A stretch of 41,388 bases of DNA, taken from the IMG/VR virus record IMGVR_UViG_2648501563_000004; one strand, given 5' to 3'. Within the stretch, counting starts at the first letter, position 1; each line of letters starts with the position of its first letter. Of the stretch, positions 18,727-34,747 are shown in pieces. The translations under genes were made by a program, and so were the position numbers. The notes beneath the pieces are model-generated. The model was not told the DNA's origin and did no database searches. It was given only the letters and a program-made list of their open reading frames with translations. The DNA comes from a virus.

Positions 18727-18755
18727 TTGACAGTTTTTCTGTCGATATCTATAAT
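18727..18755 (+). promoter_or_regulatory. Rightward early promoter, perfect sigma70 consensus
   Basis: TTGACA (18727-18732), a 17-nt spacer, then TATAAT (18750-18755). It sits upstream of the HTH gene. Confidence 0.7.
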
Positions 18756-25763: not shown

Positions 25764-26231
25764 ATGACAGCTGGTAGACCAAAAGAATATGATAGATCTA
25801 AAATCGGTGATGACCTCATTCAATGGGCTAAAAATAACCCTGATTGTCTCACTGTCCCCCACTTCGCAACATCAATCGGTTTAAATTCACAAATTTTAAT
25901 TAATTGGACGAAAGAAGATGAAGAATTTCGTGTGAAGTACATACAAGCAAAAGAACTAATTGGTTTAAATAGATTAAAAGCGACGCGAATAGAAGACGAA
26001 TCAGTTCAAAAACGTTTAGATAAAAGTATCTATATGCAAACGCTTCATCATTTCGACTATGACACTAAGCATGACGTTAGAGATGACAAGAAATATGAAT
26101 CCTCTCTACGCAAAGAAGAAGAAAGCTCAAAACAAATATCTCATACCATAGTGGTTTCCAATGACCTCTCCGCTGGCTCTAACATTCCAACCTCGCTCAT
26201 ATCAATGCCCGGCGATAAAAGCTCTAAATAG
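25764..26231 (+). CDS. terS: Terminase small subunit
   Basis: The N-terminal MTAGRPKEYD....L..W is typical of phage TerS/gp3-like HTH proteins. It lies immediately upstream of, and overlaps, terL. Confidence 0.7.
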   Translation: MTAGRPKEYDRSKIGDDLIQWAKNNPDCLTVPHFATSIGLNSQILINWTKEDEEFRVKYIQAKELIGLNRLKATRIEDESVQKRLDKSIYMQTLHHFDYDTKHDVRDDKKYESSLRKEEESSKQISHTIVVSNDLSAGSNIPTSLISMPGDKSSK

Positions 26232-27522
26232 CGGTATAAAGCGCGCTGTATTAGTTTGGCATCGCCGGAGTGGAAAAGACATATGCGCATTCAATTGGGC
26301 TATATATCAGCTCTTGCTTAATCCAGGATGGACTTGTTTTCATATTCTCCCTACGTATAGCCAAGCTAAGAAAGTCATTTGGGACGCTAACACAAACGAA
26401 TCTAAACGCCTTCTTGACTATATTCCAGATGAGTTAATTGACATCAAGAATGGTCAGGAAATGAAAATAAGGTTAACAAATGGCTCTCTTTATCAGCTTA
26501 TTGGAAGTGATAACATCGATTCTCTGGTGGGTACTAATCCCAAGATCATCATATTTAGCGAATATGCCATACAAAGCCCTGCTGCATGGGATTATTTACG
26601 TCCTATTCTCGACGTTAATAAAGGTTACGCTCTTTTTATCTCTACTCCTCGGGGGAAAAATCATTTTTATGACTTGTTAGTAAATGTTAGGAATAATCCT
26701 AAATGGTTCTGCGAAGTATTAAGCATCAAAGAAACAGATGTCTTAAATGAAGAGGATATGAATGTCATACGTAATGAAGGTGTCTCCGAAGAACTTATCC
26801 AACAAGAATATTACTGCTCGTTTAATCGAGGCGTAGAGGGATCTTATTATGGAAAACTCATCGAGAAAGCAAGAGAGGAAAAACGTATCTGTAATGTACC
26901 TTATGAAACAAGATCTCCTGTACATACAGCCTGGGACATTGGGTACGGAGATAGCACCTCAATTGTATTTTGGCAAGATCTCGGGGGGGAATGTAGAATT
27001 ATTGACTTTTATGAAAACCACGGAGAAGGGATAGCACATTATGCTAAAATCTTGCAGTCTAAACCTTATGTCTACGGCGTTCATTATATGCCGCATGATG
27101 CCGGATCAGGATCAATTCAAACTGGCCGCACGCTTCAAGATATTACTTATGAGCAGGGCATTAAAACAGTCGTATTGGAACGGGAAACTGATATCTCGAC
27201 TGGGATCGAAGCCGTTAGGGCTTTATTATCCATCGCATTTATCGATGAAATCAAGTGTCGCCATCTAATTAAATGCCTTGAAAACTATCACAAAAAATTC
27301 AACGAGAAAACACAAGCATATTCCGAAACACCAATGCACGATTGGTGTTCTCACGCTGCCGATAGCATTAGATACATGGCAAACGCCAGAACACAATTCG
27401 GTCGCGGTCCCGGAAGCTTAACACCTGACAAGCTCAATCAGCTAAAAGCGCAAGCTGGATTCGGCCCAAAACCCCGAGGTAATCCGATGATTGGCCCCCA
27501 AACTCCTTTTATTGGTAGATAA
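26161..27522 (+). CDS. terL: Terminase large subunit
   Basis: FQPRSYQCPAIKAL..RAVLVWHRRSGKD is a Walker A-like motif. IIIFSEYA is Walker B-like. FISTPRGKNHFY is present. The C-terminal nuclease part has AWDIGYGDSTSIVFWQ and HYMPHD. Confidence 0.9.
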   Translation: MTSPLALTFQPRSYQCPAIKALNSGIKRAVLVWHRRSGKDICAFNWAIYQLLLNPGWTCFHILPTYSQAKKVIWDANTNESKRLLDYIPDELIDIKNGQEMKIRLTNGSLYQLIGSDNIDSLVGTNPKIIIFSEYAIQSPAAWDYLRPILDVNKGYALFISTPRGKNHFYDLLVNVRNNPKWFCEVLSIKETDVLNEEDMNVIRNEGVSEELIQQEYYCSFNRGVEGSYYGKLIEKAREEKRICNVPYETRSPVHTAWDIGYGDSTSIVFWQDLGGECRIIDFYENHGEGIAHYAKILQSKPYVYGVHYMPHDAGSGSIQTGRTLQDITYEQGIKTVVLERETDISTGIEAVRALLSIAFIDEIKCRHLIKCLENYHKKFNEKTQAYSETPMHDWCSHAADSIRYMANARTQFGRGPGSLTPDKLNQLKAQAGFGPKPRGNPMIGPQTPFIGR

Positions 27523-27834: not shown

Positions 27835-29865
27835 ATGACATCAGGTATGCTCGAAAGGACCCAGACTCTTCCAAATATGTATCGCAACTATGAGGACGGA
27901 AATAACGATATCGTAGCCGAAGCCGATTCACGTTACATGCAAAATCTATCAGCATGGCAATTGTTTTTCTGGGAACAACTCATTGATCGTAAAGTCTATC
28001 TAGGTGACCAACGCTATCTCAATATGTATACAGGTCTTAATTACGAGCATCAGAAATGGGTTTTTAATGAGGCTATGCCTGTGACAAATATGGTAGTCGG
28101 TCGACAAAGACAGCATAGAAAAGCTACTCAAATCCTTCCTGTACATGGCGCTTCAGATCAGACAGCCTCTCAGGCTACTAAAGCAATACAATCAGCCTAT
28201 TATTTTGATGATACATACAACACAATCAGCAATTGCTTTAAAGAGTCCTGTATTACCGGATTATCTCTAATGCACTCATGGATAGACTATAGACGCGATC
28301 CCATATGCGGAGACCTGAAAAGTGAATGTTTCTCCGCTGATATGTTAATGATGGATGCGTTCTGGCGAGAACAAGATCTGTCTGACTGTCAGTTTATTCG
28401 AACACGTAAATATCTACATAAGAATCAAGTTAAGCAGTTGCTTCCTGGACGTGAAAAAGATATTGATATGTTAAATGATCAAGCCTATTTCGACACTAAA
28501 TTCACATTTATGCCCCAGCAATATAACATAAGACGCAAAGGCTTTCTTGCATATGATGAATATTGGTACCGAACCGAACGTATGGGAACATTTATAGTAG
28601 ACCCTGAGACATATGAAAGCACCGAAGTAGAGTTTGACAAAGAAGATTTAGCAAATTTAAAGAGACAATTCCCAAATATTGTAGTAGTAAAAGAGAAAGT
28701 GCCTACGGTTCACCTTGCGATCATTGTTAACAATCAGTGTTTCTATAATGGGCCTAATCCGCTAGGTGTGGACTTTTACCCATTTACACCATTTGTCGGT
28801 TATCATGATCTTGCTAATAATAACTACTCATACAGATATCAGGGTCTTATTAGAAATATTCGGGACAGCCAATACCTCCTAAATTACCGCGAGCAATTAG
28901 AGATGGATTTGTTAGCTGCGCAATTTAGCGGTGTGGATGTCGAAGAAGATGCGCTGATTGATGATAGCGATGCTTTTAAGGTTGGACCGGGTAAGGTCAG
29001 GTTTTTCAAGAAAGGGCGATTACAGGCATTGAATGATAAGCCAGGTGCTAATATCAACCCTGCTCAATTTAACGTAACAGATAGGCAGAAACAGAATGTA
29101 CAGTCACTTGCAGGAGTTACACCCGAACTATTGGGACAAGCGGAAGATAGCGACGTTGGGATTACAGAGCAACTTAGGCAAGGAGCTGCTCTCACGACAC
29201 TTCAAGAACTGTTTGATAATCTTGATTTATCACAACGGAATGCAGGTCGTTTGCACTGGTCTCTCATTCAAAAAAACTACACTTTGGGAAAAATCAGAAG
29301 AATGATAGGCGAAGAACCTACGAATGAATTTCGTGATAAATCATTCCAGAAATACGATGCAAGCGTTACCAACGCGCCTCTTACAGCTACTACTAAACAA
29401 CTCAGCTTCTTACAGAAATACACTCTTTGGAAGGATGGTCTCCCAATTCCTCCGGCTCAATTGCTTCAAGATCTCGTTATCCAAGACAAAGACAAGCTTA
29501 TCGCAGCTATCGAACAAGAACAACAACAGGCGCAACAGCAACAGCAGCAAATGGCTCAGTTGCAGATGGAAAATCAGCGCATAGTCAATGAAAGTCTGCA
29601 AAGTAAGGCAATGAGTGATCAAGCTTTAGCCAACGAACGTATGCAAAAAGGTCACCTTGAGCAATTCCAAATAGCTACAGCACACAATAAGTCTGAACAT
29701 GAAAAAGCAGCTGCAACGCTTAACATGGTAAAAGCAGCACACGAAGTTCAATCCATGAAAGTCGACGATTTTGTTAAAGTATTTACATTGATAGAAAATA
29801 TTCAAAAACGGCATAGTGAGAATGCCATTAAACAACAAGAGGCCCAAAATGTCACACAGCCATAA
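27835..29865 (+). CDS. Portal protein (676 aa) with a Gln-rich C-terminal helical extension
   Basis: Called from its size and its position directly after terL. The C-terminal QEQQQAQQQQQQMAQLQMENQ coiled segment is reminiscent of a P22-type portal barrel. Confidence 0.75.
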   Translation: MTSGMLERTQTLPNMYRNYEDGNNDIVAEADSRYMQNLSAWQLFFWEQLIDRKVYLGDQRYLNMYTGLNYEHQKWVFNEAMPVTNMVVGRQRQHRKATQILPVHGASDQTASQATKAIQSAYYFDDTYNTISNCFKESCITGLSLMHSWIDYRRDPICGDLKSECFSADMLMMDAFWREQDLSDCQFIRTRKYLHKNQVKQLLPGREKDIDMLNDQAYFDTKFTFMPQQYNIRRKGFLAYDEYWYRTERMGTFIVDPETYESTEVEFDKEDLANLKRQFPNIVVVKEKVPTVHLAIIVNNQCFYNGPNPLGVDFYPFTPFVGYHDLANNNYSYRYQGLIRNIRDSQYLLNYREQLEMDLLAAQFSGVDVEEDALIDDSDAFKVGPGKVRFFKKGRLQALNDKPGANINPAQFNVTDRQKQNVQSLAGVTPELLGQAEDSDVGITEQLRQGAALTTLQELFDNLDLSQRNAGRLHWSLIQKNYTLGKIRRMIGEEPTNEFRDKSFQKYDASVTNAPLTATTKQLSFLQKYTLWKDGLPIPPAQLLQDLVIQDKDKLIAAIEQEQQQAQQQQQQMAQLQMENQRIVNESLQSKAMSDQALANERMQKGHLEQFQIATAHNKSEHEKAAATLNMVKAAHEVQSMKVDDFVKVFTLIENIQKRHSENAIKQQEAQNVTQP

Positions 29866-32392: not shown

Positions 32393-32500
32393 ATGAGCGG
32401 TCCTACGACCACAAGCATACTTCCGCCAGCTGTACAACAACAGCTATCGATGAAGATGCTTGCTCGTCCTATGCCTGATTTGATTCATACAACCATGGGT
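32393..32500 (+). CDS. Major capsid protein, exon 1 (36 codons)
   Basis: GGAG RBS. MSGPTTTSILPPAVQQQLSMKMLARPMPDLIHTTMG resembles N4-gp56/HK97-fold capsid N-termini. The frame hits TAA at 32501, which is the first intron base. Confidence 0.8.
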
Positions 32501-33196
32501 TAAATATAGGGGTAGCCCATTTAAAATTTGGCTATTTGCTGGAAACTCCTAAAGCTTTCTGGTACACTGTTATTGACCGACAATAACATTGTAAAAATCC
32601 AGGAGATATATGGACAATCAGCAGCGAAGACTAGAAAAGGATAAAGCATGGTTCGCGGGAATCATGGAAGGAGAAGGTTCTTTTACTCTTGTTAAAGGTA
32701 AAAGGATTGATAAAGGTGAAGTAATTTACCGTTATATTCCTTCTTGTTGTGTAAGCAACACTGATCCAATGCTTATGAAAGAACTTGAAAGGATACTTAT
32801 AGAAAATGAGATCGACTTTAAGACTTATTATAGAGGTAAAAGACAGCCTACACATAAAGAAAGCTGGCAATTACATATAATTGGTATGAAGAGAAGTATC
32901 AAATTCATATCTTGGATAATTGATGAGTTAAGATGTGAAAAAAAAGTGAAAGCCCAAAAGATTTTGGAATTCTGCAAGATTAGAGATGAACAAATGACAG
33001 GATTTCACGGAATAAGATACAACGATAAAGAGTTAATCCTTTGTGAAGAAATAAGAGGCATTCAAAATTCTAGAACGCTCAACGACTATACGCCAAACGC
33101 CGAAAGGTGATGATATAGTCTGAACATACGCGAGAGCGTATGAGAGGGGAATAACAAGACCCTCCGCCTCGTAAGAGGTCATAAAAGTAACAGATG
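32501..33196 (+). mobile_element. Group I intron 1 (696 nt) with a sense-strand LAGLIDADG homing endonuclease gene
   Basis: P1 pairs AUGGGU (32495-500) with GCCCAU (32515-20), with a U.G wobble at the splice site. P10 pairs GGGGUA (32509-14) with UACCCC (33197-202). Omega-G is at 33196. The core has AACGACTA (33081) and ATAGTCTGAAC (33115), plus GNRA-capped helices. The 3' core resembles the T4 td intron as I remember it. Confidence 0.8.
32610..33110 (+). CDS. LAGLIDADG homing endonuclease (166 aa, single-motif type), intron 1-encoded
   Basis: WFAGIMEGEGSF is a LAGLIDADG motif. AGGAG RBS at 32601. The 3' end overlaps conserved intron core sequence. Confidence 0.85.
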   Translation: MDNQQRRLEKDKAWFAGIMEGEGSFTLVKGKRIDKGEVIYRYIPSCCVSNTDPMLMKELERILIENEIDFKTYYRGKRQPTHKESWQLHIIGMKRSIKFISWIIDELRCEKKVKAQKILEFCKIRDEQMTGFHGIRYNDKELILCEEIRGIQNSRTLNDYTPNAER

Positions 33197-33487
33197 TACC
33201 CCATAACGATGGATCAACAGGCCGGAGATATCCTACGTAGACGTAGATATCAAAACCTTGCTACAGCACCAGTGCCACTTGGCAATGGTATTGTAGACCC
33301 GCCAGCGCAACAATTAGTTGCTTTGGACATAGATGCTAGAATTGATTGGTATGGTACGTATTTAATACTTCAAGAGCAAGTGATGCTCATAAATGAGGAT
33401 CCGGTCCTCAATAGCGCTGTAAGCGTATTAGGACAGTCTCTTCGAGAAACTGAAGATCAGCTAGCGCGTTCGATGATGGAAGGGGGT
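33197..33487 (+). CDS. Major capsid protein, exon 2 (97 codons)
   Basis: YPITMDQQAGDILRRRRYQNLATAPVPLGNG...IDWYGTYLILQEQVMLINEDPVLNSAVSVLGQSLRETEDQLARSMMEGG follows the capsid pattern (..f.R...l......l.eG; yG.y..l.d.....a.dpvl......lg.q..et.D.l.r). It is in frame with exons 1 and 3. Confidence 0.8.
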
Positions 33488-33540
33488 AAAATGTGTGCTC
33501 CCGTTAAATCTTGGGTGATTGACTTGGAAATCCTAGCTGC

Positions 33541-33993
33541 TTAATCAGTAGGAAGACAAGGCGGAACTGTTAGACCACGTTGATTAAGAGGTTTTATGCG
33601 TTCATATAGTGATTTACGATATTCAGCAGTTTCTTTTGAGATAGGACATTCTCTTTTCAAAAAAGATTCTTTGAATTTAATTGCTATTTCGCATTGTTCC
33701 TTTTTAGAAACTAAAAATGGAAGGAGATTACGCAAAACTTCGAGGCATTCATTATTTTGAAGTCTCCAAACATAAGTTGTTTTCCAGTTAATCTTAGTTG
33801 ATCGACTGGCAGAAGTTATAGGACGGCTATAGCCGCCAATATTGGTTTCTAACCAATCTATCAACTTCTTACAATTATTGTAGACTTCAAATGTGAGATA
33901 ATGACGATTCAATCTCTTATAATGAAAGATTGAGATTGTTCCTTCTCCATCAATAATGCCGGCTAAATAAGCGTATTTTTCAATATGATTCAT
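33541..33993 (-). CDS. LAGLIDADG homing endonuclease (150 aa, single-motif type), encoded antisense within intron 2
   Basis: YLAGIIDGEGTISIF is a LAGLIDADG motif. GAGGT RBS. It has its own promoter at 34016-34044. Confidence 0.85.
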   Translation of the reverse strand: MNHIEKYAYLAGIIDGEGTISIFHYKRLNRHYLTFEVYNNCKKLIDWLETNIGGYSRPITSASRSTKINWKTTYVWRLQNNECLEVLRNLLPFLVSKKEQCEIAIKFKESFLKRECPISKETAEYRKSLYERIKPLNQRGLTVPPCLPTD

Positions 33994-34015
33994 GTTTACC
34001 TCATGGTTGGTGAGA

Positions 34016-34044
34016 ATAATAACATTTTAGTGAAATAGAGTCAA
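34016..34044 (-). promoter_or_regulatory. Near-consensus sigma70 promoter for the antisense homing endonuclease gene
   Basis: On the minus strand: TTGACT (complement of 34039-44), a 17-nt spacer, TATTAT (complement of 34016-21). It lies about 22 nt upstream of the ATG at 33993. Confidence 0.55.
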
Positions 34045-34183
34045 CAAACTAATAGACCGTGAACGACTAAGTCCCGAGACACCCGAAAGGGTGAAGCGAT
34101 AGTCTGAACTCTATGGTAACATAGAGAGGGAGATCCGAAGAGGTTTCCCCGCCTAGAAATAGGTCACAAAAGTAACAGAACTG

Positions 34184-34747
34184 GCACCTCCAATTAATTG
34201 TACCTCTGGTACTAATGGAGACAATCCTACGAATATCAGTGCATTAGACTGTAGCAAAGCCGTTCGCTTATTGCGTACAGCAAACGCTCAGTTCATTATG
34301 GACTTGATCGAAGGGGAAAATAAGTTCGGAACAGCCCCTGTGCGTACATGCTTCTTTGGCCTGACTCATACAAATTTGAGTGCAGACTTAGATCAGTTGG
34401 CTGGTTTTCAGAACGTTAGCCAGTATTCGAATACAGCTAACTTGCTTATGGCCGAGTGGGGAACAATTAGAAACATTCGTTTCTTGTTGTCTTCAGTAGG
34501 TAGTATTAGTGTTGCAGCTTCTGCAAATGGTCAGGATGTGTATAACATATTCCTACCAGGACAAGAAAGCTATGATATGGTTGATTTGGACGGCTATAGC
34601 GCCCAATTCATCTATGCACCGCCAGAGATTGCTTCACCTCGCTTGAGATTGTATCAAACAGCAGGTTGGAAGATGGCGCAAGTGTTCAACATCACGAACA
34701 CATCTTGGATCGTAAACCTACGCTGCACTCTTGCAGTGGCAATTTAA
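34184..34747 (+). CDS. Major capsid protein, exon 3 (187 codons plus stop)
   Basis: The frame is open from 34181. APPINCTSG...AVRLLRTANAQF...TCFFGLTH...YQTAGWKMAQVF is the C-terminal part of a capsid-like protein. The ORF track shows only the part from the internal TTG at 34271. Confidence 0.8.
   Translation, partial: APPINCTSGTNGDNPTNISALDCSKAVRLLRTANAQFIMDLIEGENKFGTAPVRTCFFGLTHTNLSADLDQLAGFQNVSQYSNTANLLMAEWGTIRNIRFLLSSVGSISVAASANGQDVYNIFLPGQESYDMVDLDGYSAQFIYAPPEIASPRLRLYQTAGWKMAQVFNITNTSWIVNLRCTLAVAI

Follow-up and report, generated by a model that had tools for sequence, protein, structure and literature searches.

The second intron in the major capsid gene of the virus record IMGVR_UViG_2648501563_000004 is most probably a mobile group I intron, in which the loop of helix P6 holds an endonuclease cassette on the minus strand with a promoter of its own, and which homes into intron-less alleles of the capsid gene. 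The window, i.e. the whole stretch of 41,388 nucleotides that was analysed, has the appearance of a phage genome of some 41 kb, with genes for a terminase (26161-27522) and a portal protein (27835-29865) and, on the minus strand, a RecT-like gene. Of ten further large ORFs, most received no PHROG annotation, and none was recognised as a phage RNA polymerase. A protein identical to the endonuclease of intron 2 is recorded on a JGI metagenome contig of 41,793 nt.

A capsid gene in three exons

The capsid gene is located on the plus strand and was resolved into the following parts.

32393-32500, plus strand: major capsid gene exon 1, 36 codons (reading frame and match of the joined product to phrog_1357)
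32501-33193, plus strand: predicted group I intron 1, 693 nt (sub-threshold Rfam match, E ~1e-5; core homologous to that of intron 2)
32610-33110, plus strand: sense LAGLIDADG ORF of intron 1, 166 aa, a member of the site-36 sense subfamily
33194-33487, plus strand: major capsid gene exon 2, 98 codons (match of the joined product, intronless relatives)
33488-34183, plus strand: predicted group I intron 2, 696 nt (covariation, P1 and P10, terminal G)
34184-34747, plus strand: major capsid gene exon 3, 187 codons and the stop codon (intronless relatives)

Joining of the exons yields a protein of 321 aa with a single match to the major-head-protein family phrog_1357 (residues 5-314, E 1.6e-27), and this spliced product also matches annotated capsid proteins from cultured phages. 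A scan of viral contigs with exon 3 retrieved 80 related loci with 83-94% identity, of which more than 12 possess an uninterrupted capsid gene spanning residues 1-321. These uninterrupted homologues, which are 90-94% identical, fix the junctions at residues 36|37 and 134|135. Intronless homologues are unbroken across 36|37, and excision of 33488-34183 would restore the capsid frame, with which the intronless homologues concur. The sequence AAAGTAACAG ends at 34178, and the reading frame is kept by the junction at 34183 only. The limits proposed for intron 2 in the initial annotation were upheld by the phrog_1357 match in one stretch, by the intronless relatives and by the fit of P1 and P10. 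Its proposal that the two introns are homologous was borne out by their cores, and the ORF that it had described as a sense LAGLIDADG gene in intron 1 was recognised by Pfam LAGLIDADG_3 (E 7e-4) and phrog_5046 (E 7e-10). No third intron of this kind was found in the window using two conserved core motifs.

In this phage family the 963-nt capsid gene is a hotspot for introns, with about ten insertion sites across the 80 related loci (after residues 36, ~80, 88, ~100, 106, 119, 134, 146, 183 and ~217). Up to four introns are present in one capsid gene (L043, L012), while other relatives are intron-free. Automatic gene callers break such genes into unannotated fragments and miss up to four introns per 963-nt gene.

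Structure of the intron 2 ribozyme

For intron 2, the helices P3, P4, P5, P6, P7, P8, P9 and P9.1 could be drawn in the standard order. P2 is absent and the peripheral helices are variable. The elements, all on the strand of the intron, are the following.

33482-87 with 33497-502: P1
33493-96 with 34184-87: P10
33509-15 with 34073-79: P3
33523-26 with 33557-60: P4
33531-53: P5
33562-64 with 34057-59: P6
34065-69 with 34100-04: P7
34080-93: P8
34109-26: P9
34128-49: P9.1
34151-64: P9.2
34183: terminal G

In P1, the exon sequence GGGGGU pairs with the guide GCUCCC and places a U·G pair at the 5' splice site, which is kept in all eight introns of the covariation alignment. For P10, GUGU (33493-96) can pair with GCAC (34184-87), the start of exon 3. 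All introns inserted after residue 134 (site 134) end in G, followed by GCACC.

Covariation was assessed on eight introns from this same site, in which the P6 loop was replaced by GAAA, covering 50 pairs in 10 helices. Paired combinations filled 95% of the cells and double-sided changes occurred in 19 of the 50 pairs; as the structure was drawn by eye from the same sequences there is some bias in favour of pairing, of which the compensatory changes are independent. When the partners were slid by one to three columns, 0-6 double changes were left, and none of 500 shuffles attained the observed values. P3 appears in four pair types, e.g. UCUUGGG/CCCGAGA, UUUAACC/GGUUAAA and UCUUCUC/GAGAAGA.

Rfam gave no match in the window at gathering thresholds (50 bits for RF00028). 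Below the threshold, Intron_gpI scored 28.9-31.9 bits in the window (E ~1e-5), with 28.9 bits for intron 2, and 23.1 bits for the short intron of L028. The published intron of mycobacteriophage LittleE scores 30.7 bits and is likewise under 50.

This empty Rfam result and the listing of the exons as separate small genes by automatic gene callers are what a capsid gene without splicing would give, fragmented by free-standing endonuclease genes into pieces that are separately translated or non-functional. Such a reading is scarcely credible next to conserved helices with many compensatory changes, P1 and P10 elements that match the junctions, exons that join in frame to a complete capsid protein and the presence of the same arrangement in many complete genomes of ~40 kb. 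Judged by the covarying P3-P9, P1, P10, the terminal G and the frame-restoring junctions, intron 2 is to be classed as a group I intron.

When the DNA of the whole locus was compared with known phages, the only result was a match of 96 nt, in which the P7-P9.1 part (34058-34153) is 77% identical to Desulfovibrio (Nitratidesulfovibrio) phage 7757 (PV062637.1 / OR395405.1, 81312-81407). This hints at a related intron in that unannotated 142.6-kb phage.

The minus-strand endonuclease gene

The remaining features of intron 2 belong to a gene on the opposite strand and its surroundings.

33541-33993, minus strand: predicted I-CreI-type LAGLIDADG homing endonuclease gene, 150 aa (phrog_5046, profile, structure model, dN/dS)
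33998-34002, minus strand: putative ribosome-binding site GAGGT, 4 nt upstream of the ATG (33991-33993)
34016-34044, minus strand: sigma-70-type promoter-like element TTGACT-17-TATTAT, 10/12 match, with TG before the -10 box
33565-34056, no strand assigned: P6-loop insert with the endonuclease cassette (gene, ribosome-binding site, promoter-like element), delimited by comparison with short introns
33544-33567, minus strand: last eight codons of the gene (VPPCLPTD), antisense to P5-3', P4-3' and P6-5'

The coordinates that the initial annotation had given for the ORF, GAGGT and TTGACT-17-TATTAT were all verified. The ORF lies wholly within the intron, opposite to the capsid gene, and its orthologues are likewise always opposite to the capsid exons.

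Comparison with phrog_5046 gave an E value of 1.5e-18, and in a Pfam search with the single sequence LAGLIDADG_1 was reached at E 0.018 (16.4 bits, under the cut-off of 23.1). By tblastn, annotated LAGLIDADG endonucleases in phages of Gordonia, Streptomyces and Caulobacter match the ORF. A large protein database contained 38 homologues, about 16 of which are orthologues (46-85% identity). The endonuclease protein as seed retrieved nothing from the viral contigs, where capsid exon 3 had succeeded. In the motif YLAGIIDGEG, residues A11, G12, I13, D15, G16 and G18 do not vary; position 17 is occupied by E in at least 90% of the sequences and by D in the rest. The motif aligns with DGDG of I-CreI, including the conserved acidic residue (D20 in I-CreI), and lysine 97 is conserved in the homologue alignment.

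A profile of the homologues recovered full-length I-CreI at E ~1e-10 and single-chain I-MsoI at 1e-15. An AF2 model of the 150-aa protein (pLDDT 89.4, pTM 0.81) had I-CreI chains as top matches in Foldseek (E 5e-8, TM 0.72, 148 aligned columns), followed by I-CvuI and I-MsoI. Because of the profile match and the superposition of the model, the protein is assigned to the single-motif I-CreI class with a predicted alpha-beta-beta-alpha-beta-beta-alpha fold; enzymes of this class function as homodimers. In the minus-strand frame, pairwise dN/dS was 0.05-0.25 wherever dS was unsaturated, and the sole plus-strand ORF in this stretch measures 54 aa. The ORF, as judged from these comparisons, is a real gene under selection, and its description as a LAGLIDADG gene is sustained by the fold.

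The endonuclease gene of intron 1 is also situated in P6, but runs in the other direction and ends inside P7/P3'. The two LAGLIDADG genes are no recent paralogues: their proteins have only the motif in common (29% identity over 34 aa) and fall into different subfamilies of fixed orientation, which fits an independent acquisition of the endonuclease cassette, one of the possibilities raised earlier. Sense LAGLIDADG genes (33075-33110; L044 1576-2354) end in the ribozyme core, where the J6/7-P7-P3' sequence AACGACTATACGCC codes for their conserved C-terminal NDYTP. The ribosome-binding site CCAGGAG in intron 1 overlaps the presumed P4' strand, which suggests that it is hidden in the folded RNA.

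A homologue of the endonuclease is also present in Stenotrophomonas phage StenR_269 (OR838459.1, 50942-52355), where it carries the annotation 'intron homing endonuclease' and is followed immediately, on the same strand, by a related major capsid gene.

Position of the cassette in the P6 loop

Introns at site 134 without the antisense gene have just 93-172 nt in the P6 loop, and the P6-loop (L6) ends of L028 and L004 showed no element comparable to the promoter-like one. At its 3' end, the gene of intron 2 runs into the ribozyme core. The tail VPPCLPS(A/V) is found again in most close orthologues, in agreement with a double constraint on protein and RNA as far as the alignments indicate. The stop codon of the gene falls in the P5 loop, where TTAA (33541-33544) is a stop on both strands, ending the antisense gene as well as the exon-2 frame that runs into the unspliced intron.

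The -35 hexamer was also considered as the 3' strand of P4. This was dropped, as folding of the short introns puts P4' at CAAG (33557-60) and the promoter in the P6 loop.

The P6 loop of several short site-134 introns (L004 5599-6000, L036 3750-4123, L028 5640-6000, L041 5641-6000) contains a sense ORF of ~60-70 aa that reads on through P7/P3'/P8, e.g. ...QPERLSEK.... In L004 and L036 it is Cys-rich (CxxC...CxxC) and zinc-ribbon-like. This ORF may represent the remains of an endonuclease gene or encode a small protein of the intron itself.

Orientation and insertion sites in the phage family

A total of 37 LAGLIDADG genes in capsid introns fell into six subfamilies, three sense (24 genes) and three antisense (13 genes), with the orientation fixed in each. 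At site 134 all arrangements occur. The antisense gene is present in the window and in L027, L046, L049 and L081; L044 combines an intron-1-like core with a sense gene akin to the one in intron 1; and L004, L012, L028, L036, L041 and L052 have short introns of 360-415 nt.

The flanks GGGGGT|GCACC(T/A)CC were found in 11 of 11 intron-bearing site-134 alleles. Among the 45 intron-less alleles the synonymous positions vary freely, and the exact flank sequence occurs in only three. The target GGGGGTG^CACCTCC is palindromic in six of seven half-site pairs, with its centre 1 nt from the insertion point. Such a near-palindromic candidate target suits a homodimeric enzyme.

Double-motif LAGLIDADG genes of ~310-370 aa are antisense as well, at sites 119 and 146 (L081 3722-4645 in locus orientation, L012, L043, L060, L075), and L081 contains two antisense endonuclease genes in adjacent introns of one capsid gene. 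Introns near residue 99 (L001, L015, L018, L026, L064) show plus-strand ORFs of 147-179 aa, a conserved cluster opposite antisense LAGLIDADG genes. As shadow ORFs of the real minus-strand genes, which they most likely are, they may be mis-annotated by gene callers. In L087 (1488-2300) the antisense-gene type of intron, with TTGACT-17-TAAAAT, occupies a different exon site, where the exon sequence TTCGGT pairs with the guide GCCGAA. This suggests that the whole intron-gene unit was transposed to a new site or gene.

Promoter-like element and ribosome-binding site

The boxes of the promoter-like element are located on the minus strand at 34044-34039 (TTGACT) and 34021-34016 (TATTAT), separated by a spacer of 17 nt. 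It is the best match to the sigma-70 consensus within 30.5-36 kb. Sigma-70-like sites in this region number 12, compared to 13.9 expected by shuffling, and a match in a single sequence consequently proves little.

The weight of the case lies in the comparison, because the element is conserved in orthologues and enriched upstream of antisense genes only. All orthologues examined as DNA have TTGnnn-17-TAnnnT next to P6' and a ribosome-binding site before the ATG. The sequence is TTGACT-17-TAT(T/G/A)AT in four close orthologues and TTGCAT-17-TATA(A/G)T in a more distant group, whose -35 box has only three of six matches. The ribosome-binding sites at the same place are mostly GGAG or AGGAGG, with a weaker AGGA in two. 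The near-consensus element and ribosome-binding site of the initial annotation are in this way found again across the orthologues.

For each of the 37 capsid-intron genes, the best sigma-70 match was taken from the 150 nt upstream of the LAGLIDADG motif. A match of 10/12 was present for 11 of 13 antisense genes versus one of 24 sense genes, although the loci are related and the effective comparison is one of three antisense against three sense subfamilies. Random 150-nt windows of the same loci reach this score in 3% of cases, and the spacer is 17 nt in nearly all matches of antisense genes. Even at three against three subfamilies, such an enrichment appears unlikely to arise by chance.

Could the element be unused, the gene being silent, decaying or expressed by read-through only, and its orientation a neutral accident of insertion? 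The chance frequency of single-sequence matches in the region would allow this, and in T4 the antisense-oriented segD, without a promoter of its own, is thought to be barely transcribed (PMC2988022). The low dN/dS and the intact orthologues in many metagenomes argue for an expressed protein, however, and together with the enrichment and the near-constant spacing they make a disused element very improbable. A dedicated promoter for the endonuclease gene is the preferred reading.

The window also contains a perfect consensus, TTGACA-17-TATAAT (18727-18755, plus strand), between the divergent gene clusters on the minus (13-18.7 kb) and plus (18.7-26 kb) strands, where it is probably the main early promoter. 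With a perfect consensus in a divergent early control region, sigma-70-class promoters are plausibly read in the host.

Possible antisense transcription across the ribozyme core

A terminator was looked for 3' of the antisense gene on the minus strand, and none was found. An antisense transcript could therefore reach across the core's 5' half. If it did, it might continue across P6-5', P4, P5, P3, the internal guide sequence and exon 2, and the minus-strand transcript might act mainly as an antisense RNA on the capsid pre-mRNA, through folding, splicing or RNase III decay, with the protein secondary. Such a role, which would set the timing or the amount of capsid protein, would also go with the stable inheritance of the orientation in three subfamilies. 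Strong purifying selection on the protein and the retention of catalytic residues would however be needless for a pure RNA role, and same-site introns work without an antisense cassette. We consider a predominantly regulatory RNA unlikely, and it is compatible with a homing cassette rather than exclusive of it.

Comparison with known systems

The closest arrangement found in the literature is that of LittleE. Passages of Pope et al. (2013, PLoS One 8:e69273; PMC3706429) report splicing of its capsid intron by RT-PCR, judge it most likely to be group I and describe gp14 as an I-CreI-like LAGLIDADG gene on the bottom strand, against the capsid gene; in the GenBank annotation (JF937101) gp14 is also on the bottom strand. 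As far as those passages go, LittleE and the locus described here have in common an antisense I-CreI-like gene within a probable group I intron that interrupts the major capsid gene of a phage. The proteins, in contrast, are 27% identical over 92 aa only. The LittleE ribozyme core lies 5' of the gene (Rfam match L088 1859-2062), which puts the gene in a 3'-terminal loop instead of P6, and the host is an actinobacterium with GC-rich DNA. A promoter, a comparison of orientations and family-wide recurrence are not mentioned in the passages of the LittleE paper drawn on here.

For I-DirII, in a nuclear rDNA group I intron of Didymium iridis, a summary (PMC3073962) of the work of Johansen et al. 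(2006, RNA Biol) describes an endonuclease gene that is, as here, antisense to the intron, and that has a promoter of its own and is expressed independently of host-gene transcription. The system differs from the phage locus in its nucleolar, eukaryotic setting, in which the gene uses a Pol II promoter and has a spliceosomal intron and a poly(A) tail. Its host transcript is made by Pol I and is untranslatable, whereas the issue here would be the coupling to late transcription and translation of the capsid gene. By family, I-DirII belongs to the His-Cys box enzymes and not to the LAGLIDADG proteins.

The introns of T4 are similar in being group I, in looping the endonuclease gene out of a peripheral helix, in giving it its own expression signals and in protecting splicing. 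Their genes are, unlike the present one, on the sense strand, encode GIY-YIG or HNH enzymes, and depend on middle or late promoters and sequestration of the ribosome-binding site. I-CreI, I-MsoI and I-CvuI share fold, size, the acidic residue of DG(D/E)G and the lysine with the protein predicted here, and the pseudo-palindromic candidate target around the insertion site is likewise an I-CreI-like trait. They are encoded on the sense strand of introns in algal chloroplast 23S rRNA and are ~25% identical to the predicted endonuclease of intron 2.

Searches of the literature for endonuclease genes that lie antisense in group I introns of bacteria or phages yielded LittleE and Didymium only. Orientation is not mentioned in a 2014 review of bacterial group I introns, and in other reviews, which cover how T4 manages on the sense strand, I-DirII is the only antisense gene with a promoter of its own to be mentioned (PMC3073962, PMC2988022). 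The antisense layout is rare but not unprecedented, as LittleE and I-DirII precede it. The initial annotation had held such genes to be known mainly from eukaryotic nuclear introns and unusual in phages; their rarity stands, but LittleE, from the passages cited (PMC3706429), shows that they are not confined to eukaryotes. What is new is the comparative evidence for a putative dedicated promoter, the predicted run of the gene antisense to part of the P4-P6 core, and the repeated occurrence of the layout within one phage family.

Proposed mechanism and significance

In the mobile-intron model, the promoter of the cassette would let host RNA polymerase transcribe the endonuclease gene without regard to the capsid message, probably at an earlier time. 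During co-infection the endonuclease would cut intron-less capsid alleles at the near-palindromic GGGGGT|GCACCTCC, the predicted substrate of the 150-aa protein being GGAAGGGGGTGCACCTCCAATT, and repair would copy the intron together with the cassette. Upon later plus-strand transcription of the capsid gene, the ribozyme would fold and splice with no ribosomes translating inside it. This convergent late transcription would collide with the endonuclease promoter, probably silencing the gene.

It is possible, as a more tentative step beyond this model, that the backwards gene with its own promoter is a selected and recurrent strategy, combining early expression, late shut-off and a ribosome-free ribozyme, and perhaps modulating splicing. 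The pattern across the family is more interesting as a result than the single locus.

How an intron-borne endonuclease gene is expressed without harm to its host gene is a long-standing question. To our knowledge the solutions known from bacteria and phages are all on the sense strand: late promoters, hidden ribosome-binding sites and autorepression. The capsid genes of this family offer a natural comparison, in which one insertion site holds the same kind of ribozyme without a gene, with a sense gene or with an antisense gene and its own promoter. If the strategy is real, expression of the endonuclease would be uncoupled from late capsid transcription, and these phages would provide the first such bacterial or phage system in which the idea could be tested.
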